From Anaerolineales bacterium (lineage in GTDB: Bacteria; Chloroflexota; Anaerolineae; Anaerolineales; UBA4823): a stretch of DNA of 45,357 bases. The stretch lies in the NCBI GenBank assembly GCA_041551115.1, contig JBFENN010000003.1:1-45357 (forward strand). The letters are read 5' to 3'. The position numbers and the translations under genes are program-made. Positions 33,078 through 44,925 of the stretch are shown here, piece after piece (the first letter of the stretch is position 1; each line of letters opens with the position of its first letter). The notes under the pieces were generated by a model. It did no database searches. It had not been told where the DNA came from and was given only the letters and a program-made list of their open reading frames with translations.

Positions 33078-33884
33078 CTAGTAATAATCTTCAATAAATG
33101 GTGTAGTGAGCAGATGGAACGCCAACGTCGACATCCATGGGGCTTTGCGGAGTTTTCCTGTGCGCGAATTTGAGTGAGCCCGCTCAAGAATAGTTTCACA
33201 GCGAGCTAAGACTAATTCATCTTCAAAGTAATGGTTAAGCGGTACTTGCCCAGAAAGGATTTCATGAATGCCTAGTTTTTCATAGATGTTCCCCATCGCT
33301 TCTGATATCCAATCCGTGCCGATCACCAGTTCGTCAGCGATATCACGCTGGGACAGGTTGAAAATGATACCCAAGTGTACAATTTCACTCTCTCTCCGGG
33401 AGAAATTGGCAACTTTGCCACAGCCATCAAGCACTTTGATATCCCTTCCGACAGCACCTCTCCCCAACCAATTTTGCACACCAGGTGTTATCACCCGGAA
33501 ACCTCTGGATGATAGTGCTACCGCCGTAGCCATAGAATACAAAACTTCACTCTTTAAGACATATCCACCGAACAAATCATGAGTGCTGTAATATGATAGA
33601 TTGTGATTCACTGTAGTTCCAGCGTAAAGGACCACCGGTGGCGAATCGATAGAAGCCAGTTTATCCAAGATTTGAAAAGGCCATGCATGATCATCCGGGG
33701 ATTCCACCCCGATTAATATCACATCAACCTGTTTGATTGGTTTATCCAAAATATCAATGATGTCATCCCGACCATACAGTTCACTAATAACGCGCGTCCG
33801 CCAATCACGGGTCAGCATCATTGCCATCATATTTCGGGAGTAGATATCATCTTCGACGATAAGTACACAAATATCTTTAGCCAT
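33078..33884 (-). CDS. Atypical response regulator (pseudo-receiver + LuxR-like HTH + C-terminal extension)
   Basis: 'VLIVEDD', 'GGYVLK', HTH-like 'FSRRESEIV...SQRDIADELVI...IYEKLGI'. The phospho-Asp position reads 'DVILIG'. Confidence 0.72.
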   Translation of the reverse strand: MAKDICVLIVEDDIYSRNMMAMMLTRDWRTRVISELYGRDDIIDILDKPIKQVDVILIGVESPDDHAWPFQILDKLASIDSPPVVLYAGTTVNHNLSYYSTHDLFGGYVLKSEVLYSMATAVALSSRGFRVITPGVQNWLGRGAVGRDIKVLDGCGKVANFSRRESEIVHLGIIFNLSQRDIADELVIGTDWISEAMGNIYEKLGIHEILSGQVPLNHYFEDELVLARCETILERAHSNSRTGKLRKAPWMSTLAFHLLTTPFIEDYY

Positions 33885-34051: not shown

Positions 34052-35875
34052 TTAGAACACGGCGTCTACCATCAGTACAGCCATCAAAAATGCCAGGTAC
34101 ATGCTTGAATACCGGTACATCTTCCAAGCTACTTTGTTGCCAGCCTGCTTCCAGACTTGCCAAGCGGTTAAAACTAACCAACCGCCTAAGACGATTGCGC
34201 CAACAAAATAAATATTGCTTCCCAACCCAAACAGTGGTAGGACTAATGTCAAGATCACCAATTCGACAGTATATACAAGTATCTGCCGGCGAGTTTCCCT
34301 CTCCCCCTTGATGACTGGTAACATCGGGACACCGGCTCGGGCATAATCTTTCCGTCGCACGAGGGCTAACGCCCAAAAATGAGGTGGGGTCCACATAAAG
34401 ATCACTGCGAACAAGAATAATGAAGGGATATTGAGGCTGCCGGTTGCCGCTGCCCAACCAACCAGTGGAGGGATTGCGCCGGCACCTCCCCCAATGACGA
34501 TGTTCTGAACTGTAGTCTTCTTTAAGAGAATACTGTATAAAAAGACATAATAGAAAATACCTGCGAGCGTTAATAACGCAGCCAATAAATTGACAAATGC
34601 CACCATGATGAAGAATGAGGCTAGAGAAATGGCAACACCGAAAGCAAGCCCTTCTGCAGGGGTTAGCCTTCCTGAGGGGATTGGCCTTTTTTGGGTGCGT
34701 TGCATCTTGAGATCATCACGGCGATCAATATATTGATTTATTGCACCTGAACCGCCGGCTGCCATAAAACCACCGACGAGCGTCCAAAACGTTAACCCTG
34801 CACCAGGCCAAGCCTCAGCTCCGATTACCATCCCAGCGTAAGTTGTCACAAGGAGCAGTACAACCACGATTGGTTTTGTAAGTAGCAACAAGTCTTTCGC
34901 CATCCCTGACAGCCTGCGCGGCTCTTCCGAATGAATATGGACAGTTTTTGTCTCGTGCTTGGTTAATCCAACAAAAGCAAGAAGAACGACGAGGGCTCCC
35001 CAGACCGCAATGGATGTAACGCTATGAAGCATATAAAGGCTTGCGGAGGTCTCGACTATCATTTTGCTGCCTAGAAGCGCCTGGCTGAAGATCAATACTA
35101 CTGCAACTGTCACCGGGACAAGTACAGTCGCCTGCATCCGATATGTTTTCCAGGCCTTCAACATCGTGGACAGCAGCAAACCAAATGTGATCAACACCAA
35201 ACTGCGATGCACTATGTTTAGGACAACCAAGAATGCCGGTTGGTCGCTTGAAAAACTGCACAATGGCCAAGATGGGCATGCTCCGCCAGCATCTGTAGCA
35301 GCAATTACTGCCCCACTGATGGTTAGCAGTGCATATGCCGTTATAACAGCAACCACCTGCCTGGCGTAAGCTGAATTCATGGTAAAACCTATTTCCTGCT
35401 CATTACTTGAGTGCTTGATTTGGTCATAGCGGGAAAAACCGAAGACAGCTGCGATAACGAATGCAGCTAACGCAAGCATGGATAATCCTAGATGAAATGT
35501 TGGGAGCCACAAACTTTGCTGGTTGGCCATAATCGCCCCAATGCCAATTTGGACAATGATCATAACGGCCGCTGCAATCACAGGCAGCTGGAGTAAACGT
35601 ATCCCACGCGCCCACCGTAAAGTAAAAACCACCGCAACCAATGTCAGGACAGCGGAGATTAGCGTTGTTAGCCGGTGGAGATAGTCAATGAACCCAGATT
35701 GATCGGTTGGCGGAGAAAAAGTTCCATAACACGTCGGCCAATCTGGGCACCCCGCTCCGGAAGTGGAACTGCGCAGCATCCCGCCCAGCACGATCACAGC
35801 AATGACTGAGAGCGCAGCAGCCAATAATAAGAAGCGAACTAGTGATGCTTTTCTACGGTTATCGGTGGGTATCAT
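34052..35875 (-). CDS. ctaB: Fused heme A synthase-like (CtaA/COX15) and heme O synthase (protoheme IX farnesyltransferase)
   Basis: N-half 'GCPDWPTC...YLHR' and 'ACPSWPLC...IVHR'. C-half 'LTKP', 'DRRDDLKMQRTQKRPIPSG', 'WTPPHFWAL', 'DYARAGVPMLP'. Confidence 0.92.
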   Translation of the reverse strand: MIPTDNRRKASLVRFLLLAAALSVIAVIVLGGMLRSSTSGAGCPDWPTCYGTFSPPTDQSGFIDYLHRLTTLISAVLTLVAVVFTLRWARGIRLLQLPVIAAAVMIIVQIGIGAIMANQQSLWLPTFHLGLSMLALAAFVIAAVFGFSRYDQIKHSSNEQEIGFTMNSAYARQVVAVITAYALLTISGAVIAATDAGGACPSWPLCSFSSDQPAFLVVLNIVHRSLVLITFGLLLSTMLKAWKTYRMQATVLVPVTVAVVLIFSQALLGSKMIVETSASLYMLHSVTSIAVWGALVVLLAFVGLTKHETKTVHIHSEEPRRLSGMAKDLLLLTKPIVVVLLLVTTYAGMVIGAEAWPGAGLTFWTLVGGFMAAGGSGAINQYIDRRDDLKMQRTQKRPIPSGRLTPAEGLAFGVAISLASFFIMVAFVNLLAALLTLAGIFYYVFLYSILLKKTTVQNIVIGGGAGAIPPLVGWAAATGSLNIPSLFLFAVIFMWTPPHFWALALVRRKDYARAGVPMLPVIKGERETRRQILVYTVELVILTLVLPLFGLGSNIYFVGAIVLGGWLVLTAWQVWKQAGNKVAWKMYRYSSMYLAFLMAVLMVDAVF

Positions 35876-35923
35876 TTTCGTACTCGCAAGCTAATAATGA
35901 AATTATGATTTAGACAAGAGCAT

Positions 35924-36745
35924 CTAATTGGATTTGTTCATGCGGTGATATATCAAGATCGGATAACCAATTCCTAAGATAATCGCAAACGTAAACCACT
36001 GCAGTGCGTATCCAAAATGAGGGCCTTCTGTGAGTTCCAGTTGGGGTAAAGCCCGGTAAGGCAAATCTTTCCAGGCCTCATCAGGTGCTTGCTGCACATA
36101 TGCAATTGGCTGCAGTTCAAAAGGTACCTGCTTGGCAATCTGTGCTGTATTGGCAAAATTCCATACTCGCAGTGGCTCTTCACCAGGTAGAGGAATAGGG
36201 TCAGTCCGCCGCCCATAGTCAGGTTTATCTTGTGACGCCCGCAGCATGCCTCTTGCTTCCACCAGACCAGTTTCGGCATAAGTTGACCAATCCTCGTATT
36301 GAAAATTTTCTATTGGAACCCAACCCCGGTTGACCAAAATATACGTATCTGTGCCAGATATTTTTAGGGGAGTAAGTAAATTCACACCTATCCGATTGCC
36401 CCTGGCTTGGTTGCGAAGAGCAACCTCGTGCGAGAAGTCATATTCCCCACGGACTACAACAGAGCGATATTCCATATCGCCGAGATCAAGATCCATTGTG
36501 GATTGATCCAGGATCAGGGTGGGCTGTGCAAGCTGAGCAGATACACGAGCATTGAACGAACGGCGTTGTTCAAGACGATCGAGCTGCCAGATTCCTAACC
36601 GGACCATAACAGCCATCGCGATTATGACAATGAAAGTAGCAAAGATCCACCGTCGGGTAATCATCGCCAGCACAGTACTGCTGCCCATTCTGAGAGCATG
36701 ATTGCGCTGTTCAATATCTTTAGAGCTATCGATTGCGTGTGTCAT
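35924..36745 (-). CDS. SURF1 family cytochrome oxidase assembly protein
   Basis: 'LGIWQLDR', 'LVNRGWVP', 'HFGYALQWF'. ATG 36745 forms an ATGA overlap with the upstream stop. Confidence 0.92.
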   Translation of the reverse strand: MTHAIDSSKDIEQRNHALRMGSSTVLAMITRRWIFATFIVIIAMAVMVRLGIWQLDRLEQRRSFNARVSAQLAQPTLILDQSTMDLDLGDMEYRSVVVRGEYDFSHEVALRNQARGNRIGVNLLTPLKISGTDTYILVNRGWVPIENFQYEDWSTYAETGLVEARGMLRASQDKPDYGRRTDPIPLPGEEPLRVWNFANTAQIAKQVPFELQPIAYVQQAPDEAWKDLPYRALPQLELTEGPHFGYALQWFTFAIILGIGYPILIYHRMNKSN

Positions 36746-37266
36746 GCAGATTGTTCCATCCATTTAAGTGGATCATCTTTCTTCACTGGAAAAACCAAGA
36801 AAGAATATAAAAATAGAAAAGCGGTTGTCGTCGGGACCGAAATACCTAAACCGACTAGACGGGTAGTCCATGTCGTCGGTTGGCGGACATCAAACCCCAA
36901 ATATTGACTGGGCACGAAGGAACAGGTGTAAGAATATTCGTTAGCTTCATCAAGCACCAAGCTGCCTGCGGCACCGGGTGGTACCCAAATCGGCCCAAGC
37001 TGGTGGTTGACTGTATCTTGGTTAATGACTTCCAGCACATCACCTAAGACAAAAACCGAATCTGCAGGTAATGAGATTACATCCTCACCTGCTTCTACAC
37101 TTTGCGAGGCCCCTTCGGGGATCACAAGTTGAATCGTCTTGGGCGCTCGACCGGTCTCATCCCGCTGGAGTAAAAACGCACCCTCGGTGATAATAACCAT
37201 CATTCCCAACGAGATCAAGAATATGACGACCAATCGAAGCACATACGGTCGGTACTCGGGCTTCAT
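36742..37266 (-). CDS. Membrane-anchored protein with a cupredoxin-like domain, function unknown
   Basis: Two terminal TM helices around 'LGDVLEVINQDTVNHQLGP...YSYTCSF'. Embedded between the SCO and SURF1 genes. Confidence 0.6.
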   Translation of the reverse strand: MKPEYRPYVLRLVVIFLISLGMMVIITEGAFLLQRDETGRAPKTIQLVIPEGASQSVEAGEDVISLPADSVFVLGDVLEVINQDTVNHQLGPIWVPPGAAGSLVLDEANEYSYTCSFVPSQYLGFDVRQPTTWTTRLVGLGISVPTTTAFLFLYSFLVFPVKKDDPLKWMEQSA

Positions 37267-37270
37267 TTAA

Positions 37271-37876
37271 CTACCCCTCCCCGACCAAATTCTCGATATC
37301 CGCAAGCATATCTTCCCAATCCATCTCAAAAGGGTACGTCAAACGCCAATTGCCTGCTTTATCTATGAGATAAGTTCTTGCAGTGTGATCAACAAGATAC
37401 CCTGATGCACTGCCTAACTCTTGCTTAGCCCGGTAAACACCATAATCCTGGTAAACCATCTCTAGAGCTGCGACCTCACCGGTCAAACCCAATATGGACG
37501 GATGATAGAATCCCAAATATGTGTTTAATCGAGCGACATCATCCCGCTCAGGATCCACAGTTATGAACGCGAAGCGGACTTGATCCGCCTGATCACCTAA
37601 GCTCTCAATTATCTTCTTGTACTCAGAGAGCGTAATCGGGCAAACATCCGGGCAGTTTGTATACCCAAAGAAAATCAACACCACATCACCAGCCTGCTCA
37701 CTCAATCGAAAAGTTTCCCCATGGTGGTCCGTAAGTTCAAAATCTGCTGCAGGTATTGGAGGTTCTATATGGGAACCTTTGAATTCATATGGCTGGTTCG
37801 ATATTTGCCAACCAACAAGCAACAATCCAAGTCCGATTAATATCCCCACCCCGAGGTACAACATCCTTGATTTCAT
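37271..37876 (-). CDS. SCO1/SenC copper chaperone
   Basis: 'FFGYTNCPDVCP', 'TVDPERD', 'VDHT', N-terminal TM helix. Confidence 0.95.
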   Translation of the reverse strand: MKSRMLYLGVGILIGLGLLLVGWQISNQPYEFKGSHIEPPIPAADFELTDHHGETFRLSEQAGDVVLIFFGYTNCPDVCPITLSEYKKIIESLGDQADQVRFAFITVDPERDDVARLNTYLGFYHPSILGLTGEVAALEMVYQDYGVYRAKQELGSASGYLVDHTARTYLIDKAGNWRLTYPFEMDWEDMLADIENLVGEG

Positions 37877-37954
37877 AACATCACGTGTCCAGAGTTAGCG
37901 TTGATTTACCATCTCCAACAGTCACTTGATTTGCTAACCGATCTTTATCGGTTA

Positions 37955-38530
37955 TTAAATTGGCGTACCGATTAAGTAAAGCGCTGGATAGAAAAATATC
38001 CACACAACATCAACAAAATGCCAATATACAGCCACAGCTTCAACTGGCCAATGCCTTTCAGAATTGTACAAACCTTTACGACTGTTTCGGTAAACGATGA
38101 TCAGGAAGATTACACCGGAAAACACATGGAAGGCGTGGAACCCAGTCATAATATAGAATAACGAAGCCGCGACGCTATCGCTCGGTCCGAAGGGCGCGAT
38201 ACGCCATTCAACACCAACAACCCCAACCAGAAAGATAATCCCTAATACGATTGTGATCAGGATGCTGATATTGAAATTCTTCTTATCATCATATGCCATA
38301 GCAGTCTCAGCTCGGTTCATAAAGAAGCTGCTGATTAACAAGATGCTGGTCACCGCCAAACCCAAGAGCTGATTTAATTCCGGTCGGAAATCAGTTCCCA
38401 GCAAATAGAAACGGCTAACTAGCAATCCTCCGAAAATGAAAACCTCTGATAACAAGAACAGCCACAGCCCAAGCCGGTTGGTGGAGGTCTTATGTTTGTA
38501 GTCTTGGATCGTAGTCGAATGTGTAGCCAT
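37955..38530 (-). CDS. coxC: Cytochrome c oxidase subunit III (short form)
   Basis: 'GLWLFLLSEVFIFG', 'TGFHAFHV', 'YWHFVDVVW'. True start is ATG 38530 (TAATG coupling, SD GGAGG). Confidence 0.93.
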   Translation of the reverse strand: MATHSTTIQDYKHKTSTNRLGLWLFLLSEVFIFGGLLVSRFYLLGTDFRPELNQLLGLAVTSILLISSFFMNRAETAMAYDDKKNFNISILITIVLGIIFLVGVVGVEWRIAPFGPSDSVAASLFYIMTGFHAFHVFSGVIFLIIVYRNSRKGLYNSERHWPVEAVAVYWHFVDVVWIFFYPALYLIGTPI

Positions 38531-38781
38531 TAATGCGCCTCCTCTTCTCCAGCAAACAGACGGCCAATGTGCATGTAATCCCTTAGTACCAATGCGGCCT
38601 TTAACACTGCGATAGCGACTAATGGTGCCCACCAGCCGATGGCGATCGAGCCCAACCAATATTCTCCGATTGTAAAAACCCCTAACAATACCAATACAAC
38701 GATACCAATTCGGTAGGCTTCATTTCTGTTTTCCACCAATTGCTCTTCGCTGTTTGAGGTTGATTCTTTTTTTTCTGCCAT
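38530..38781 (-). CDS. Cytochrome c oxidase subunit IV family protein
   Basis: Two TM helices, 'FTIGEY' and 'AVLKAALVLRDYMH'. Position within the cox operon. Confidence 0.82.
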   Translation of the reverse strand: MAEKKESTSNSEEQLVENRNEAYRIGIVVLVLLGVFTIGEYWLGSIAIGWWAPLVAIAVLKAALVLRDYMHIGRLFAGEEEAH

Positions 38782-38882
38782 TTCAGTAATCTCCTGCCTA
38801 AATCCTCTTCCTGCTGTGTTAAATCATGATAAAAAATGGTGCTTCTAAGGGCACATAGACCGAAATTCATGCCTTTATTATG

Positions 38883-40829
38883 TTAGTCCGCGGTCGCTGG
38901 GATCGCTTCGGCACTCGGAGTCGCTTTGTCATGATCCGGGTGCATATCGATATAGACTGATCCTTCCAGACCATAATCATACGGGTCTCCCACAACTTCG
39001 AAAGGTTCATCGTAATTGATCGCAGGTGCCGGATTAGGTGTTTGCCACTCAGGTGAACGCGAACGCCACGGGTTGGTTCGGGCTATCTCTCCGCGCTTAG
39101 CGCTCGAGTAGAAGTTATATAAAGCAACTAATACTGAAAACGCAATTGCAAATCCAGCGATCGTTATCATCAAGTGTTGAATTTCAATCCCCAAAGCTGG
39201 ATCATAATCGGCAATCCGGCGCCTCATTCCCAACAGACCAACCTGCATCTGACTCAATGATTGCAGATAGAAAGCCGGAAGCATCACAAAGAAATGCAGC
39301 TTCCCAAGCCTTTCACTATACATTCGCCCAGTCACCTTTGGGAACCAATAGTAAATTGCCGCAAAAAACGGAAAGACAAATCCCCCAAACATTGTCGCGT
39401 GGAAATGCCCTACGATCCAATATGTATCCTGGACATGAAGATCGGTTGCCACAACCCCGTTTGGGGGGCCGCTTAATCCACCCAATAGGAATATCGAGAT
39501 TGCACCCAGCACAAACAACATGGGTGTCTCAAAAGACAATTTCCCTTCCCATAAAGTGCCAATCCAGCTGAAAAACTTTATGCCAGTCGGTACGGCAACA
39601 AGCAGCGTGCTGTACATGAAAGGCACTCGCAAATAGGGTGCCATACCAGAAGTAAACATATGGTGAGCCCAAACGAGGAACCCGACAATCGCGATCCCAA
39701 ATGAAGAAACCGCCACCCACTTATATCCAAACAACGGTTTCCGGGAGAACACTGGCAGCAGTTCACTGATTACTCCCAAGCCGGTCAGGATGAATACATA
39801 TACAGCGGGGTGGGAGTAAAACCAGAAAAGGTGCTGAAACAAGATCGGATTTCCACCCAACTCGGGTTTGAAAAAGCCCATCCCAAACAACCGCTCCAAC
39901 ATGACCATCTCAAAAGATAGACCAATTAATTGGGTAGCCGTCAGGCTGATCACAGCTGTTGCCAATGCAGTCCAGACGAAAATCGGCATCCGGAAATAGC
40001 TCATCCCAGGAGCACGCATTGTTACAACCGTTACAATGATATTCAACGATCCAAAAACGGAAGATAACCCGATGATAATTACCCCCAGGAAGAACATCTG
40101 CATCCCTAAAGGTGCTTGAGCGCTGAGTGGAGGATAACCAGTCCAACCGGTGTCAAAACCACCTAAGAAGAGTGTGCTGACCAGCCAGATTCCAGCAGGA
40201 ATATTCAGCCAGTATGCAAAAGCATTCAATCGGGGAAATGCCATGTCATTGGCACCAATCATCAGCGGGACAAGATAGTTCGATAGTGCCGCCACACCAA
40301 GCAGGATTGCACCAATCATGACGATGCCGTGCAAACTCATGATGGTGTTATAGAAATTCAAACCGCTCATTCCCAAAATCTCAGCATCCTGGGTCATGAA
40401 CTGCAGTTCCGATGCCGCCAATTCAGTGCGAAATGTCAACGCGAAGATGCCAGCCAGGGTGAACAGTATCAAGGATGTGATACCGTACTGGAGCCCAATG
40501 ACCTTGTGATCGAATGATATGTTAAGCAGCTTTCGCCAGCCTGACAATTCTGGCGCGTGGGGATGGTTTGTTGTTTCAACACCATTCATCCATTTCAGCC
40601 AATCTGAGAGTGTGCCTGCCCCAAACAGGAAACCGAACGATCCAAAAATAGCCCCGACAACCCAGGCGGCTTCGGCAAACCATGCTTCGAGCCCCATCAA
40701 TAGGCGCACACCGGTTACCAGTCCCATACCTAGCAAGAGACCAATCACCAATCCGATAAGACCACGTACCATACTCAAAGTGAAGAAGCTGACTTTATTT
40801 TCTTCGTTCATATTTTCTCCGCTCATCAT
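38883..40829 (-). CDS. coxA: Cytochrome c oxidase subunit I, A2-type, with N-terminal hydrophobic extension
   Basis: His ligands 'SLHG', 'WFYSHPAVY', 'WAHHM', 'GHFH'. D-channel 'DMAFPRLN', K-channel 'PTGIK'. Alternative start at 40811. Confidence 0.97.
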   Translation of the reverse strand: MMSGENMNEENKVSFFTLSMVRGLIGLVIGLLLGMGLVTGVRLLMGLEAWFAEAAWVVGAIFGSFGFLFGAGTLSDWLKWMNGVETTNHPHAPELSGWRKLLNISFDHKVIGLQYGITSLILFTLAGIFALTFRTELAASELQFMTQDAEILGMSGLNFYNTIMSLHGIVMIGAILLGVAALSNYLVPLMIGANDMAFPRLNAFAYWLNIPAGIWLVSTLFLGGFDTGWTGYPPLSAQAPLGMQMFFLGVIIIGLSSVFGSLNIIVTVVTMRAPGMSYFRMPIFVWTALATAVISLTATQLIGLSFEMVMLERLFGMGFFKPELGGNPILFQHLFWFYSHPAVYVFILTGLGVISELLPVFSRKPLFGYKWVAVSSFGIAIVGFLVWAHHMFTSGMAPYLRVPFMYSTLLVAVPTGIKFFSWIGTLWEGKLSFETPMLFVLGAISIFLLGGLSGPPNGVVATDLHVQDTYWIVGHFHATMFGGFVFPFFAAIYYWFPKVTGRMYSERLGKLHFFVMLPAFYLQSLSQMQVGLLGMRRRIADYDPALGIEIQHLMITIAGFAIAFSVLVALYNFYSSAKRGEIARTNPWRSRSPEWQTPNPAPAINYDEPFEVVGDPYDYGLEGSVYIDMHPDHDKATPSAEAIPATAD

Positions 40830-40845: not shown

Positions 40846-42258
40846 TTACTGCAAACTCTCGATGAAACTGATCACGTCATCAATCTGCTGATCCGTCAAT
40901 TCGGCAGCAACATTGACTGGCATGATATTGCCAAATCCTTGGACGATGTTCGCTCCGGGGTTGCGGATTGATTCAAATAAATATTCATAGTCGGCGACTG
41001 TTGTGCTGCCATCATCAAATACCCGCTCACTACCATATAATCCAGTCCAGGTAGGACCTACTCCCTCGCTGCCATCAATAGAATGGCAAGCTTGGCAGCC
41101 ATAAGTAACATACAAATTCTGGCCGCGTGCGACAGGATCGGCCTCGTCTCCAGCTTGAGAGATCAACCAATCTTCAAATGCGGTTTTCTCCATGACGATG
41201 ACTGGAGCAGTCATATAAGTATGCTGTAACCCACATAACTCGGCACAACGTAAGGTGAAGTCACCGACTTGCGTGGGCGTCACCCGTAAATCTCTAACCA
41301 GATCCTCGCCGGGTAAAACATCTTGCTTAACTCTGAATTCTGGTACCCAGAATGAGTGAATGACATCGACCGAAGATAGATGGAGCAGTGCCTGCTCATC
41401 AACAGGCAAACGCAACTCGGTAGTAGTTATGCCGTATTCGGGGTATTCGAAGCGCCAAGACCACTGCTGCCCAATCACATTAACTTCCATCGCCTCTTGA
41501 ATTTTTTGTGTATCTGCTAAAGCGATGCTACCTACGTAGGCAAAATAGATAACAACAGCTAGTGGGATAACGGTCCATATGACCTCTAGTCGTGTGTTCC
41601 CTTCGACATGCTTGGCGTCGGAATAATCGCCCTTCTTGCGGCGGAATACGACAATGCTGTAGAGCATAAAAACGATAATCAGCGCAAACAAGAATGCGAT
41701 CACCATAAATTCCATTCTAAACATGCGGTCAATTGGTGCCGCTTGCGCGCTAGCTGCATCAGGAAGTAGTCTTACCTGACCCAATCCGAAGACCAACAAG
41801 GCAGTAACAAAAACTACCAATATACCCACAATAACAAAATGCTTCATACCACTTCTCCTAGTAGAGTCGCTATCAGGCTTTCCTGGTATTTTCTCGATTT
41901 GATTTTCTTGGTTGCTGTCACCCTGCCACTTTTTTAACCAATCATCAACCTGGGAACCGGACATGGTTCGACGGTCATATACTAGCGCTTCTTGCCCACC
42001 ATCATGCAGCGAGAGTACTACTACACGTAGCTGTTTCCCAGCTTCTAAAAAACGCGCTAAGATCTCCTTGCGGTTTAGTAATTCATCGTCATGATCGACA
42101 AGAATTAGATCTGGATTCTGCCTTTCCAAATATGGAACAGCTTCATCTACGCTGGAGACGACGCCAATGACTTCAACATCGCCGCCTTTACGCTCTTGCA
42201 GCAAACTGCGTAATCCCTCACCAAAAAGAGCATGGTTTGAGGCAATTAGCACGCGCAT
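40846..42258 (-). CDS. coxB: Cytochrome c oxidase subunit II (CuA + C-terminal cytochrome c, caa3-type) with an in-frame N-terminal receiver-like domain
   Basis: CuA 'DVIHSFW...CAELCGLQHTYM' and heme c 'CQACH'. N-terminal 'MRVLIASNHALFGEGLRSLL...PDLILVD'. SD-preceded ATGs at 42258 (GAGGA) and 41847 (AGGAGA). Confidence 0.9.
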   Translation of the reverse strand: MRVLIASNHALFGEGLRSLLQERKGGDVEVIGVVSSVDEAVPYLERQNPDLILVDHDDELLNRKEILARFLEAGKQLRVVVLSLHDGGQEALVYDRRTMSGSQVDDWLKKWQGDSNQENQIEKIPGKPDSDSTRRSGMKHFVIVGILVVFVTALLVFGLGQVRLLPDAASAQAAPIDRMFRMEFMVIAFLFALIIVFMLYSIVVFRRKKGDYSDAKHVEGNTRLEVIWTVIPLAVVIYFAYVGSIALADTQKIQEAMEVNVIGQQWSWRFEYPEYGITTTELRLPVDEQALLHLSSVDVIHSFWVPEFRVKQDVLPGEDLVRDLRVTPTQVGDFTLRCAELCGLQHTYMTAPVIVMEKTAFEDWLISQAGDEADPVARGQNLYVTYGCQACHSIDGSEGVGPTWTGLYGSERVFDDGSTTVADYEYLFESIRNPGANIVQGFGNIMPVNVAAELTDQQIDDVISFIESLQ

Positions 42259-42327
42259 GGGTTTCCTCATTCTATCCACCGTATTTTTCTAATTCAGACC
42301 TGTATTATGAGAGTTTCTCCAATAGCA

Positions 42328-42356
42328 AATTTACCAAATTGCTCCCGGCGTGTCAT
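42328..42356 (-). promoter_or_regulatory. Predicted promoter of the cox operon
   Basis: Minus strand ATGACA (42356-42351), 17 bp, TG-G-TAAATT (42333-42328). Confidence 0.55.
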
Positions 42357-42393
42357 CCTTCCAGCCTGAAAATAAGGAGGATATTAAATAACA

Positions 42394-42423
42394 CGGAGGG
42401 GTGATTTAGCAATCACCCCTCCG
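42394..42423 (-). terminator. Perfect 13-bp inverted repeat: terminator of the two-component genes and/or regulator binding site
   Basis: CGGAGGGGTGATT-TAGC-AATCACCCCTCCG, followed on the minus strand by TGTTATTT. Confidence 0.6.
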
Positions 42424-42451
42424 CAGATTTATTTTCTAGACTTGGTTTTTC

Positions 42452-43096
42452 TTAGAGTTCTCGTTGAATTAACCCCATCTGCGTAGCTTTACTAACTGCT
42501 TCAGCTCGATTTGCAGCTTCCATTTTTTCCAAAATATGCCTCACATGCGTTTTGACTGTATTCTCAGAGATGAATAATGCATCAGATATCTGAGCTGTCG
42601 TCATCCCATTGGCAAGACAATCTAGCACATCCTTCTCCCGGCTGCTGAGGCCGAAATCTTGGGACTTCGAACGGTCGACGTCCACCGCCTGCAAGACCCT
42701 TTTTGTCACATCTGGCGAGAGCACTGCCAATCCTTCATTTACTTTTCTGATTGCAGAAGATAATTCATCTGGCGTTGCATTCTTCAAAAGATATCCATCC
42801 GCTCCAGCTTTGATGGCACCAAAAAGATCTTCGTCATTTTTTGAGACCGTCAGCATCAAGATTTGGCATGAAGCGGTTTTTTTAAGGATTTTTACCGTCT
42901 CAACACCGTCCATGATCGGCATGTTTACATCCAACAGCACAACATCGGGTTTTTTTTCTGCAATTACAGATAATGCTTCACGACCGTTTCCTGCTTCACC
43001 AACTAAATCAAATTCAGGCATGCCATTCAACAAACTAACCAATCCCGAACGAAATAAGGCATGGTCATCAACAACAACTAACCTGATTTTACTCAT
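42452..43096 (-). CDS. NarL/LuxR family response regulator
   Basis: 'VVDDH', 'PDVVLLDVNMP', 'GYLLK', HTH 'LSSREKDVL...ISENTVKTHVRHILEKM'. Confidence 0.96.
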   Translation of the reverse strand: MSKIRLVVVDDHALFRSGLVSLLNGMPEFDLVGEAGNGREALSVIAEKKPDVVLLDVNMPIMDGVETVKILKKTASCQILMLTVSKNDEDLFGAIKAGADGYLLKNATPDELSSAIRKVNEGLAVLSPDVTKRVLQAVDVDRSKSQDFGLSSREKDVLDCLANGMTTAQISDALFISENTVKTHVRHILEKMEAANRAEAVSKATQMGLIQREL

Positions 43097-44925
43097 GAGA
43101 CACTCTCTCTCATATTCAACGGCATACGAACTCGGACAATGGTCCCATCATTATGTTTGCCGATGACCTGGAATTCTCCGCCTATCAATTCAGCCCTCTC
43201 ACGCATACTCCGTAAACCATGTGTAGTTGGCACTTGGATATCGGAAGTATCGAACCCAATCCCATTATCTCGTATTTCAAGGATCAAATCGCCGTGGTAC
43301 TTGCCACATGATATATGAATTAGGTTAGCCTTGGAATGCTTGCGGATATTATTCAATGCTTCCTGAACCACACGCATAAGTTGAGCATTTACTTCAGGTG
43401 ATAGTTCCAGATCATCCCCCTCAATGGTTATGTCAATCTCTAATCCGGTATTTTCGACAAAATCTGCGGCCATCTTTTCCAACCAGATCTTAATTCCGGG
43501 ATCCTCGCTTGGTACACGCAAGCCATCAATCGCTTGTCGTGCATCCAGGTAGGCATTTGATACAGTCTCGTAACAGATAGGGACGGTCATCTCCAACTGG
43601 TCATATTCACCAAACTCCAAGAAGGTTTTCATCTGTGCGATCTTGAGTTTCAAGAATCCCAAGGTTTGTGCTAAGCCATCATGGATTTCACGTGAAAGAC
43701 GTTTCCGTTCATCCATCACCGTGCGATACTCCAATTCGGTAAGCATTTCCATATTATTGAGCACCAAGGCAGCCTGACTGGCTAACGATCTAATCAAGCT
43801 GCGCTGACGTTTGGTTAGGTCGAGGTTTCGATTCTTGCCAACAATCAGCACTCCTTGGATTGACTCGTCGGGGGAAATCATTGGCACGCCGATAATGGTA
43901 TAACCGCCTGATTTTATGTTTTCATCTTGATCATAGTTTTTAAGAATGACAACATCATCCGAAGTCATTACGGTGGGAAATAAGCCTTGAATAAAGCCAT
44001 TCACATTCTCTGGAAACATACCGTTCGAAACCCAAATCTCTGGTGGTCCGCTGGGCGATATCTGTTTAATAATCAGGGAATAATCCAATTCCAGGCTTTC
44101 GTGTAGGTTTTCTAAAAACTCAGAAAGCACGCTCTTTGGATCCGTCTTCGCCCGGATCGCATTCATTTGGCGCAGAGTATTCAATTCTCTATTCCGCAAA
44201 CGGATCGCTTCTAATGCAACTGCGGTTTCATCAGTAATTTTCTTTAAAAATTCCTTTGAATCCTTACTCAAATCACCAGCTTCAGGCAAGTATAGGTTTA
44301 AAAGTCCATACTCTTGTTCACCGCGCTGCAAGCGGACGCAGTATATGTTGGTGTGTTCGCTAAATGTTCCAATGAGCAGCGGGCAGCTTTTGGATAATGA
44401 CTCTACGGACTGACAATCGGAGCATCGGGCTCGCATTTTTGGCGATGCCAGGTATTCTAACCAGGCGTCAGCGGCAGGCAGCGGCATCTCTCCGCGAGTT
44501 GTCGCTGTCAGAGGCTGGGCTCGGTCATCCAACGGAACGAAAGACGCACCGCGTGCACCAAGGATGTCTATTGAAAGCTTCAAGATCAGTTCGACAACTT
44601 CGCCCTCGGCTTGAGCGGAAGCAAAAAGCTGTGAAATTTCAAACACAACCTGCTGCATTATTTGAGCAGCAGTCAACTCATCCTCTAGTGTTCTGATACG
44701 CGTCAATAATGCTGCATGCTTAGCTCGATAGGTGTGCTCTCGGCCGACAATAGCATAAGTCAGCAAACCTAAGAAAGCAAGAAAAAAGCTGCCCATCGAA
44801 GCCCAAAGACCAGCCGCGCCAATGGGAACTACGAAATGGATGATGATTTCATTCGCAGCAATTAATCCTAATGTGATTAAGATAATGCTATGCTGAGTTT
44901 TTGGTCGCCAGGTTATCTTTTGCAT
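43093..44925 (-). CDS. Membrane histidine kinase (2 TM, two GAF-like domains, HisKA_3, HATPase)
   Basis: H-box 'ERKRLSREIHDGLAQ', 'QEALNNIRKHS', 'DNGIGF', 'HGLRSMRERA'. 4-bp overlap with the response regulator gene. Confidence 0.94.
   Translation of the reverse strand: MQKITWRPKTQHSIILITLGLIAANEIIIHFVVPIGAAGLWASMGSFFLAFLGLLTYAIVGREHTYRAKHAALLTRIRTLEDELTAAQIMQQVVFEISQLFASAQAEGEVVELILKLSIDILGARGASFVPLDDRAQPLTATTRGEMPLPAADAWLEYLASPKMRARCSDCQSVESLSKSCPLLIGTFSEHTNIYCVRLQRGEQEYGLLNLYLPEAGDLSKDSKEFLKKITDETAVALEAIRLRNRELNTLRQMNAIRAKTDPKSVLSEFLENLHESLELDYSLIIKQISPSGPPEIWVSNGMFPENVNGFIQGLFPTVMTSDDVVILKNYDQDENIKSGGYTIIGVPMISPDESIQGVLIVGKNRNLDLTKRQRSLIRSLASQAALVLNNMEMLTELEYRTVMDERKRLSREIHDGLAQTLGFLKLKIAQMKTFLEFGEYDQLEMTVPICYETVSNAYLDARQAIDGLRVPSEDPGIKIWLEKMAADFVENTGLEIDITIEGDDLELSPEVNAQLMRVVQEALNNIRKHSKANLIHISCGKYHGDLILEIRDNGIGFDTSDIQVPTTHGLRSMRERAELIGGEFQVIGKHNDGTIVRVRMPLNMRESVS

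Follow-up and report, generated by a model that had tools for sequence, protein, structure and literature searches.

The window analysed here, the whole of a 45,357-nucleotide stretch from an Anaerolineales bacterium of the phylum Chloroflexota (contig JBFENN010000003.1, positions 1 to 45,357 of the forward strand), contains a gene in which a small receiver-like domain is fused in frame to subunit II (CoxII) of a caa3-type cytochrome c oxidase. We refer to this domain as PsR, for pseudo-receiver. Its conservation, its constant position beside an oxidase gene and its co-occurrence with one particular histidine kinase lead us to propose, with about even confidence, that PsR is a non-canonical receiver-like adaptor that links the caa3 oxidase to the two-component system encoded nearby, a GAF-HisKA_3 kinase and a NarL-type response regulator; the binding partners in this proposal are inferred.

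Structure of the fused gene

A single open reading frame (ORF) on the minus strand (40846..42279) spans both the receiver-like domain and CoxII and encodes 477 amino acids (aa) when read from the GTG at 42279; further in-frame ATGs lie at 42270 and 42258. The sequence GAGGA is found 5 nucleotides (nt) ahead of ATG 42258, and AGGAG (41855-41859) is found 7 nt ahead of an internal ATG at 41847. The gene is divided as follows.

41935..42258, minus strand: PsR, the receiver-like or pseudo-receiver domain, 108 aa from ATG 42258, with alternative starts at ATG 42270 and GTG 42279
41848..41934, minus strand: polar linker of 29 aa, variable and disordered, holding the internal Shine-Dalgarno sequence AGGAG (41855-41859)
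41845..41847, minus strand: internal ATG, putative start of a short CoxII isoform, at the same position as the CoxII start in split loci
41779..41838, minus strand: TM0, the N-terminal signal-anchor or signal-peptide transmembrane (TM) helix of CoxII, FVIVGILVVFVTALLVFGLG, corresponding to helix 132-160 in the full-length AlphaFold2 (AF2) model
41740..41757, minus strand: A-S-x-Q-A motif (AASAQA), a candidate signal-peptidase I site past TM0, conserved in 21 fused proteins
40849..41742, minus strand: mature caa3-type CoxII with TM1, TM2, the CuA cupredoxin domain and a C-terminal cytochrome c domain (PF02790, PF00116, PF00034), followed by the stop codon at 40846-40848

Residues 172-476 of the long frame match the Pfam families COX2_TM, COX2 and Cytochrom_C with 49.8, 56.9 and 40.8 bits, respectively, all above the cut-offs, and NCBIfam assigns the C-terminal part to CoxB (TIGR02866, 158.1 bits against a cut-off of 147.7). 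The Response_reg family matches residues 10-95 of the whole frame with 22.4 bits, which is below its cut-off of 30.2. An initial annotation of this DNA, made from the sequence alone, had claimed a receiver-like domain fused in frame to CoxII, and this claim is borne out, as the frame is a single ORF and the fusion is found in 30 genomes. All the strings that it quoted are present: HALFGEGLRSLL, PDLILVD and SNH in the long ORF, and HALFRSGLVSLL in the neighbouring regulator. The same annotation held that the domain resembles that regulator, and here we find no special closeness. PsR aligns to its neighbour with 21.5 bits and to other receivers of the same genome with up to 35 bits, and we therefore reject the idea that PsR is a recent duplicate of the adjacent receiver.

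Distribution of PsR and reality of the fusion

The N-terminal 144 aa were searched against 41 related genomes, and orthologous PsR was found in 17 of them with scores of 69-307 bits, compared with at most 45 bits for ordinary receivers. A profile made from the alignment of these 17 sequences (A2) was then run on 301 genomes sampled from the order, where strong matches (101-182 bits) occurred in 35 genomes belonging to 8 of 18 families; one weak match (55 bits, genome G098) is left out of all counts. The 17 relatives together with 28 further genomes from the 35 strong matches make up the 45 PsR genomes considered below. Outside the order, a 401-genome sample of the phylum gave no PsR match at E ≤ 1e-15.

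All 45 loci were inspected, and PsR directly precedes an oxidase gene in every one. It is fused to CoxII in one open frame in 30 loci, which fall in four families, and forms a separate ORF directly upstream of coxII in 13. The other two have PsR before a CoxI-like gene (L023, genome G072) and before a CtaA-like gene (L025, genome G127); no CoxII match at E ≤ 1e-60 was found in these two genomes, which are 82% and 84% complete. Among the 13 split loci, seven have PsR and CoxII in the same frame with one stop codon between them (TGA in two, TAA in five), and six have them in another frame or with a short gap. Tight coupling is seen in two of these six, L019, where start and stop overlap as GTGA, and L016, where a Shine-Dalgarno sequence overlaps the stop. 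Since both TGA and TAA serve as the single stop, no one reassigned codon accounts for the seven loci, and we reject recoding or readthrough of these stops as their explanation. In public databases, 62 protein clusters carry the N-terminal domain (E ≤ 1e-8), with lengths of 463-504 aa except for two fragments of 280 and 284 aa. The only name given to them is "cytochrome c oxidase subunit II", with Anaerolineales bacterium as the label of one, and a precomputed PF00072 match exists for about half.

The initial annotation had taken relatives with a separate receiver ORF and a stop before the CoxII ATG as a sign that the long frame could stem from a lost stop or an assembly error. Such relatives do exist among the 45, namely the 13 split loci with the same-genus genome and its TGA in the linker among them, and to this extent the refutation that the annotation had named for itself holds; the fused arrangement is found in 30. 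The junction itself is supported by an independent DNA run that covers 40846-43100 without insertions or deletions; the sole difference in the linker, 41864 G>A, changes Ser to Phe and makes no stop. Together with the 29 other genomes that have the fused frame, the public clusters and the strong purifying selection described below, this run rules out an assembly error, a sequencing error or a pseudogene as the source of the long frame, an explanation to which we give almost no credence and in favour of which the TGA of the same-genus genome may be cited.

Fold and class of the PsR domain

The AF2 model of PsR (pLDDT 82) has the topology b1-a1-b2-a2-b3-a3-b4-hairpin-b5-a5. Helix alpha4 is absent between b4 and b5 in the AF2 models, so the predicted topology is not (beta-alpha)5. 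PsR alone scores 26.7 bits against Response_reg (PF00072), below the cut-off of 30.2, and aligns with profile positions 1-83 of 111 only; all 17 aligned members match PF00072 at E ≤ 0.01, the best at 4.6e-8. Residues S7, H9, F12, G15, D50, D55, D57, D58, R78, S83 and R96 are invariant in alignment A2. The Asp at the acceptor position at the end of beta3, D55, is invariant in the 17 PsR sequences as well as in 21 full-length sequences. The same is true of S83, a candidate equivalent of the switch Thr/Ser at the end of beta4. The acidic pair that forms the Mg2+ site after beta1 is missing; each of the 17 sequences has there the invariant S7 and then S, N, G or H. There is no invariant or near-invariant Lys such as canonical receivers have at the end of beta5; R96, which is invariant, and R97, which is nearly so, lie in a strand that is paired with b4 as a hairpin in the model. 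The earlier reading of a domain that keeps the acceptor Asp and lacks the acidic pocket and the Lys thus holds over all 17 sequences.

Structure comparisons point to receivers of the NarL type. Foldseek against the PDB found the NarL, DesR, VraR and DosR receivers with TM-scores of 0.55-0.62 over 80-89 residues (E about 1e-4). In a wide VIA-align fold search, 47 of the 50 matches listed are titled receiver or pseudo-receiver domains (Z 7.3-9.1), the other three being a fold-fragment chimera, a human Rossmann-fold protein and a complex I entry that was matched through its receiver-protein chain. The PsR profile matches NarL in the PDB with E = 1e-8 over positions 3-92 only, and the alpha1 helix is NarL-like. 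PsR retains the acceptor-position Asp and the initial four fifths of the receiver fold, and fails four defining features of a canonical receiver, so it should not be filed as one. We found no Pfam or NCBIfam model dedicated to the family. PsR is a compact new pseudo-receiver subfamily, specific to the order as far as the genomes searched show, and derived from NarL-type receivers.

The acidic pair and the Lys are needed for the phosphorylation chemistry of receivers. With both of these and alpha4 lost, ordinary Mg-dependent phosphotransfer to PsR would be unlikely. This bears on the possibility that PsR is a true phospho-accepting receiver, in which the neighbouring kinase phosphorylates D55 and thereby directly controls the activity or assembly of the oxidase. 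The invariance of D55, D57, D58 and S83, the NarL-like alpha1 helix and the co-occurrence of the kinase with PsR agree with such a role, whereas the S-[S/N/G/H] sequence in place of the acidic pair in 17 of 17 members, the lack of a conserved Lys, the b4-b5 hairpin that replaces alpha4 in the model and a Pfam score below the gathering cut-off all argue against it, and we consider it very improbable.

An exhaustive search of representative proteins returned 113 proteins at E ≤ 1e-10, mostly stand-alone forms of 110-160 aa. The same search lists many more proteins, about 110-135 aa long and scoring 50-65 bits, that may be part of a wider family. In the ESM Atlas, the closest clusters consist of unnamed Chloroflexota proteins of 127-137 aa. 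The genome of the window encodes a stand-alone PsR paralog of 110 aa (L041:3545-3877, plus strand; genome G000, contig C62) with the same alpha4-less layout. In this paralog the acidic pair is replaced by S-R and the acceptor Asp by Asn (IINCDD). Its gene follows directly after a NuoF-like gene and a gene for a 673-aa Fe-S/polyferredoxin membrane protein, and genome G001 has a counterpart.

Two translation starts

A Shine-Dalgarno-like motif and an ATG are present at the CoxII start inside 27 of the 30 fused genes. In 25 of these the motif is AGGAG or GGAGG, 6-9 nt ahead of an ATG that leads into the hydrophobic TM0; of the other two, one has TGGAG and one has AGGAG at a distance of 15 nt. The motif is kept as nucleotides, while the residues that it encodes vary among RR, RS and WR. 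The remaining three fused genes (L032-L034), from three genomes of one genus, have no internal ATG or Shine-Dalgarno motif and encode the same basic residues by CGG, CGA or CGC. Because CGN Arg codons suffice there, the AGG AGx codons found elsewhere are best read as a ribosome-binding site and not as an amino-acid requirement. The idea of two isoforms, put forward in the initial annotation, is strengthened by this conservation at the nucleotide level. In the window, a short CoxII, which would be translated from its own AGGAG and ATG 41847, and a long PsR-linker-TM0-CoxII, which would be translated from ATG 42258, are probably both made. In the genus that lost the internal start, the fusion is the sole route to CoxII, and the long isoform must therefore be translated and competent.

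The CoxII part is an ordinary subunit. Its best solved relative is subunit II of the Thermus caa3 oxidase (2yev_B, E = 1.5e-37), which aligns from TM1 to the C-terminus. H301, C338, C342, H346 and M349, which we take to be the CuA ligands, are invariant in 21 full-length sequences, and so are C388, C391 and H392, presumably of the heme c CxxCH motif. The full-length AF2 model places PsR (residues 1-114), TM0 (132-160), TM1 (173-204), TM2 (222-250), the cupredoxin domain and the cytochrome c domain in that order, with pLDDT below 50 for residues 96-135 around the linker. Given three helices and a CuA domain outside the membrane, the N-terminal domain would have to be cytoplasmic, and TM0 would hold the PsR of the long form at the cytoplasmic face of the membrane.

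Past TM0, the 21 fused proteins share the motif A-S-x-Q-A-x-x-I-D, with no variation at A169, Q172, A173 and D177 and very little at S170 and I176. TM0 and the A-S-x-Q-A motif are also found in split CoxII and in CoxII of genomes without PsR. Signal-peptidase I sites follow the -3/-1 rule, and A-S-x-Q-A may be such a site with Ala at -1. Cleavage after the motif may free mature CoxII from the long form. If so, both arrangements would give the same mature CoxII, the fusion would only add a membrane tether to PsR, and the changes between fused and split genes described below could be tolerated for this reason.

Association with the GAF-HisKA_3 kinase

Upstream of PsR, the window encodes a two-component pair.

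42452..43096, minus strand: NarL/LuxR-type response regulator (Response_reg 95.3 bits, GerE 75.6 bits)
43093..44925, minus strand: probably membrane-anchored histidine kinase with GAF, HisKA_3 and HATPase_c domains (Pfam), in the translation of which the N-terminal hydrophobic stretches read as putative membrane helices

The kinase and the regulator are immediately upstream of PsR in 23 of the 36 loci examined for neighbours, and in two others (L015 and L020) the regulator is about 2 kb away. Co-occurrence was evaluated in the same 301 genomes of the order with a cut-off of E ≤ 1e-60 for kinase orthologs. Such orthologs were detected in 36 genomes, comprising 33 of the 35 genomes with PsR compared with 3 of the 266 others. 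In the two PsR genomes below the threshold, the kinase gene that lies beside PsR is truncated or shorter. All five PsR genomes that lack an adjacent kinase hold one elsewhere, and no kinase was found at E ≤ 1e-30 in five genomes of the same family that lack PsR. As far as gene content can tell, this pattern ties PsR to the kinase and to the oxidase alike. The link to the kinase that had been suggested earlier is upheld by this co-occurrence; as a matter of adjacency it is incomplete, with neither kinase nor regulator nearby in 11 of the 36 loci. A predicted complex of the DHp-CA part of the kinase (two copies, alignment A4) with PsR (A2) received a score of 0.00, which speaks neither for nor against binding.

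Three genomes (G117, G299 and G315) have a kinase ortholog and no PsR match; in G117, CoxII lies in a 363-aa open frame on a short contig. Genome G300, from the same genus as three PsR genomes, contains CoxII and matched neither PsR nor the kinase. The assemblies of these four genomes are fragmented, with 310-600 contigs. At L021 and L024 (family f12) the place of the kinase-regulator pair, immediately upstream of PsR, is taken by an opposite-strand gene. Its product, of about 660 aa, has weak Pfam matches of the multiheme CxxCH type.

PsR could instead be a subunit or assembly factor of the oxidase alone and have no part in signalling, docking on the cytoplasmic face of caa3 or aiding CoxII insertion and the maturation of CuA and heme, while the kinase and the regulator merely control transcription of the operon. 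In each of the 45 loci PsR is fused to CoxII or leads the oxidase operon, its phosphorylation residues are lost, the paralogous alpha4-less protein stands beside NuoF-like and Fe-S genes in the same genome, and a receiver protein with an occluded Asp has been described as a structural subunit of complex I (PMC10068793). However, among the 128 genomes of the order sample with CoxII (a count that includes G262, flagged as unpublished), 95 lack PsR, and PsR is therefore not needed for this oxidase. The kinase occurs in only one of these 95, so that co-regulation alone does not explain the near-identical distribution of PsR and the kinase, which share 33 genomes. We regard a purely structural or assembly role as rather improbable.

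Selection and exchange between fused and split genes

The ratio of nonsynonymous to synonymous substitutions (dN/dS), a check that the initial annotation had proposed, was computed by the NG86 method for pairs with unsaturated dS, the last pair being left out. It ranges over 0.04-0.16 for PsR, 0.03-0.22 for CoxII and 0.12-0.40 for the linker, so that PsR is as constrained as CoxII and the linker is looser. Amino-acid identity between genera is 74-81% in PsR and 25-41% in the linker.

On a quick IQ-TREE phylogeny of CoxII from 34 PsR-linked loci and two relatives without PsR, the label changes between fused and split at least eight times, at least seven of which are forced by well-supported branches. 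Even sister pairs differ in this respect, for example the window, which is fused, and its same-genus relative with TGA in the linker. The two arrangements must therefore be nearly equivalent. Judged from the sequences, the join is interchangeable with the split arrangement and not obligatory, except in the genus that lost the internal start. In the family of the window, all 15 loci inspected at the junction keep PsR and CoxII in one frame despite a linker that varies widely in sequence and length, which argues against free drift.

These dynamics bring up the alternative that the fusion is near-neutral. PsR would then be a soluble protein that assists the two-component system, serving the kinase or the regulator as a decoy or connector, and the join would be only a tolerated loss of a stop, made harmless by CoxII's own start and by TM0 as a cleaved signal peptide, with no role of its own for the long isoform. 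The frequency of the changes, including those between sister pairs, is what such a process would give, seven of the 13 split loci are one in-frame stop away from fusion, the internal Shine-Dalgarno motif and ATG are kept in 27 of 30 fused genes, and it is PsR that the kinase tracks. On the other hand, two thirds of the loci (30 of 45) are fused, in four families, the 15 loci of the window's family hold one frame through very different linkers, one genus depends on the fusion, and PsR stands beside an oxidase gene in every locus, with the kinase adjacent in about two thirds of those examined. We consider a near-neutral fusion unlikely.

A proposed role for PsR

In the adaptor role that we favour, PsR would be made in step with CoxII and in fixed proportion to it, either by translational coupling or by fusion, and would act through protein-protein contacts between the oxidase and the two-component system. 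It would thereby report oxidase synthesis to the sensor, or pass the output of the sensor to the enzyme. Natural gene fusions are strong hints of functional partnership, and the repeated joining and breaking of PsR and CoxII suggests that the oxidase is wired to the nearby sensor system. A more specific form of this proposal has PsR as a stable subunit on the cytoplasmic face of caa3, held by TM0 in the fused forms, with the GAF kinase acting on PsR or being informed by it directly; this form is unlikely in our estimate. If it is true, the two-component system has a respiratory enzyme instead of DNA as its third partner.

Several points weigh against the adaptor role. The binding of PsR to the kinase, the regulator or the oxidase is inferred, and the full-length AF2 model (pTM 0.52) gives PsR no confident contact with the membrane part and no confident placement relative to it. 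For 11 of the 36 loci, the flank (about 1.4-3.5 kb) contains unrelated neighbours and no kinase or regulator gene. The genomes counted for co-occurrence are kin, so the counts do not represent independent events and overstate independence. The frequent change between fused and split genes says that the covalent link itself would matter little. The invariance of the acceptor Asp, the following D-x-D-D and S83 means that some phosphorylation chemistry may be possible in PsR. Three contigs from RNA libraries (X16-X18) cover parts of PsR, the linker and CoxII; they are short, carry neither 5' ends nor strand and could derive from DNA carry-over, and they do not prove transcription.

Whatever the role of PsR, these loci provide a natural series for how fusions become fixed, from separate genes through fused genes with an internal start to fused genes in which the internal start is lost. 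They also offer a testable case in which a two-component system and a terminal oxidase would communicate at the post-transcriptional level, in a group that is poorly studied and largely uncultured.

Neighbouring features of the oxidase operon

The remainder of the oxidase operon (34052..40829) lies downstream of CoxII, and two regulatory-type sequences lie between PsR and the regulator gene.

42392..42425, minus strand: terminator-like hairpin with a perfect 15-bp stem followed by TTATTT, between the regulator gene and PsR
42328..42356, minus strand: promoter-like site ATGACA-17-TAAATT with a TG extension, upstream of PsR, a consensus match only
38883-40829, minus strand: CoxI (oxidase operon, Pfam)
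38530-38781, minus strand: CoxIV (oxidase operon, Pfam)
37955-38659, minus strand: CoxIII (oxidase operon, Pfam)
37271-37876, minus strand: SCO1 (oxidase operon, Pfam)
35924-36763, minus strand: SURF1 (oxidase operon, Pfam)
34052-35875, minus strand: CtaA-CtaB fusion (oxidase operon, Pfam)

On the minus strand the hairpin can be read as a terminator, and on the plus strand too, though less well. The same-genus genome has exactly this hairpin, whereas the 40 nt preceding it are largely different there. One promoter-like site was found upstream of PsR, compared with 1.4 expected from shuffled sequences, and it is kept in G001. Since both the hairpin and the promoter-like site are kept in the same-genus genome despite the differing spacer, the oxidase operon probably has its own promoter, albeit a weak case.

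The CtaA-CtaB gene is a second fusion within the oxidase operon of the window, a single ORF of 607 aa with COX15-CtaA (heme A synthase, residues 16-296) followed by UbiA/CtaB (heme O synthase, residues 341-592). No Pfam family was matched at E ≤ 1e-4 by two other minus-strand ORFs, one of 174 aa (36742-37266) inside the operon between SCO1 and SURF1 and one of 268 aa (33078-33884) directly downstream of CtaA-CtaB.

Comparison with known systems

To our knowledge, subunit II of heme-copper oxidases does not carry a cytoplasmic signalling domain. The initial annotation had remarked that the architecture is undescribed, and our literature search, with most subscription journals outside its reach, likewise found no description of a receiver or pseudo-receiver domain on oxidase subunit II. 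Pseudo-receivers, receiver proteins attached to respiratory complexes and, under automatic names in public databases, the PsR-CoxII proteins themselves are already known. What is new is the alpha4-less fold and the natural series that leads from separate genes to a committed fusion.

On the oxidase side, subunit IIc of the Thermus thermophilus caa3 oxidase (2yev_B) is the same ordinary subunit II with a fused cytochrome c, and unlike PsR-CoxII its chain has no N-terminal cytoplasmic domain. For the domain, the best matches in both sequence and fold are NarL/LuxR regulators (NarL 1a04/1rnl, DesR, VraR) at PsR positions 2-92; past beta4 PsR cannot be aligned with them, and it has no GerE output domain. 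DosR, a member of the NarL family (3c3w), is the match with the widest coverage of the PsR model (102 residues, Z 8.9). The DosR receiver has a non-canonical (beta-alpha)4 topology, and its kinases DosS and DosT have a GAF-HisKA_3 layout; the kinase of the window shares with them the order GAF, HisKA_3, HATPase_c. DosR is, however, a phosphorylated DNA-binding regulator, whereas PsR has neither an output domain nor the acidic pair. The pseudo-receivers of CikA (2j48) and KaiA (1m2f) match PsR with Z of 8.1 and 7.8 and combine a receiver fold without phosphorylation residues with protein-protein signalling. They belong to cyanobacterial clock proteins with no shown sequence kinship to PsR, which differs from them in keeping the acceptor-position Asp. 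Both bind quinone.

The closest precedent is the mycobacterial protein MSMEG_2064/Rv3143, a single-domain regulator encoded 5' of nuoA. In the available parts of the reports on it, it is described as a structural subunit of complex I with an occluded target Asp (PMC10068793) that modulates the complex through protein interactions (PMC9274095). Like PsR, it is a receiver fold at the 5' end of a respiratory-complex operon. The PsR model matches MSMEG_2064 (8e9g chain O) with Z 7.9 over 91 residues at 19% identity, and MSMEG_2064 is not among the 10 PDB sequences found by the PsR profile, so the likeness is an analogy and not a specific sequence kinship. MSMEG_2064 acts by protein contact with a respiratory enzyme, and by analogy the same may apply to PsR. 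They also differ. MSMEG_2064 belongs to complex I, is described with its target Asp at position 63 and with no known kinase, and is not known to be fused to a subunit. PsR is tied to a heme-copper oxidase, lacks alpha4 as well as the acidic pair and the Lys, occurs together with a kinase and in many loci is covalently fused. So far mycobacterial complex I offers the only known case in which a receiver protein is integrated into a respiratory complex, and an adaptor role for PsR would extend it. If PsR is indeed a caa3 subunit in direct touch with the kinase, the two cases together would point to a general and overlooked class of receiver-fold regulatory subunits of respiratory complexes.

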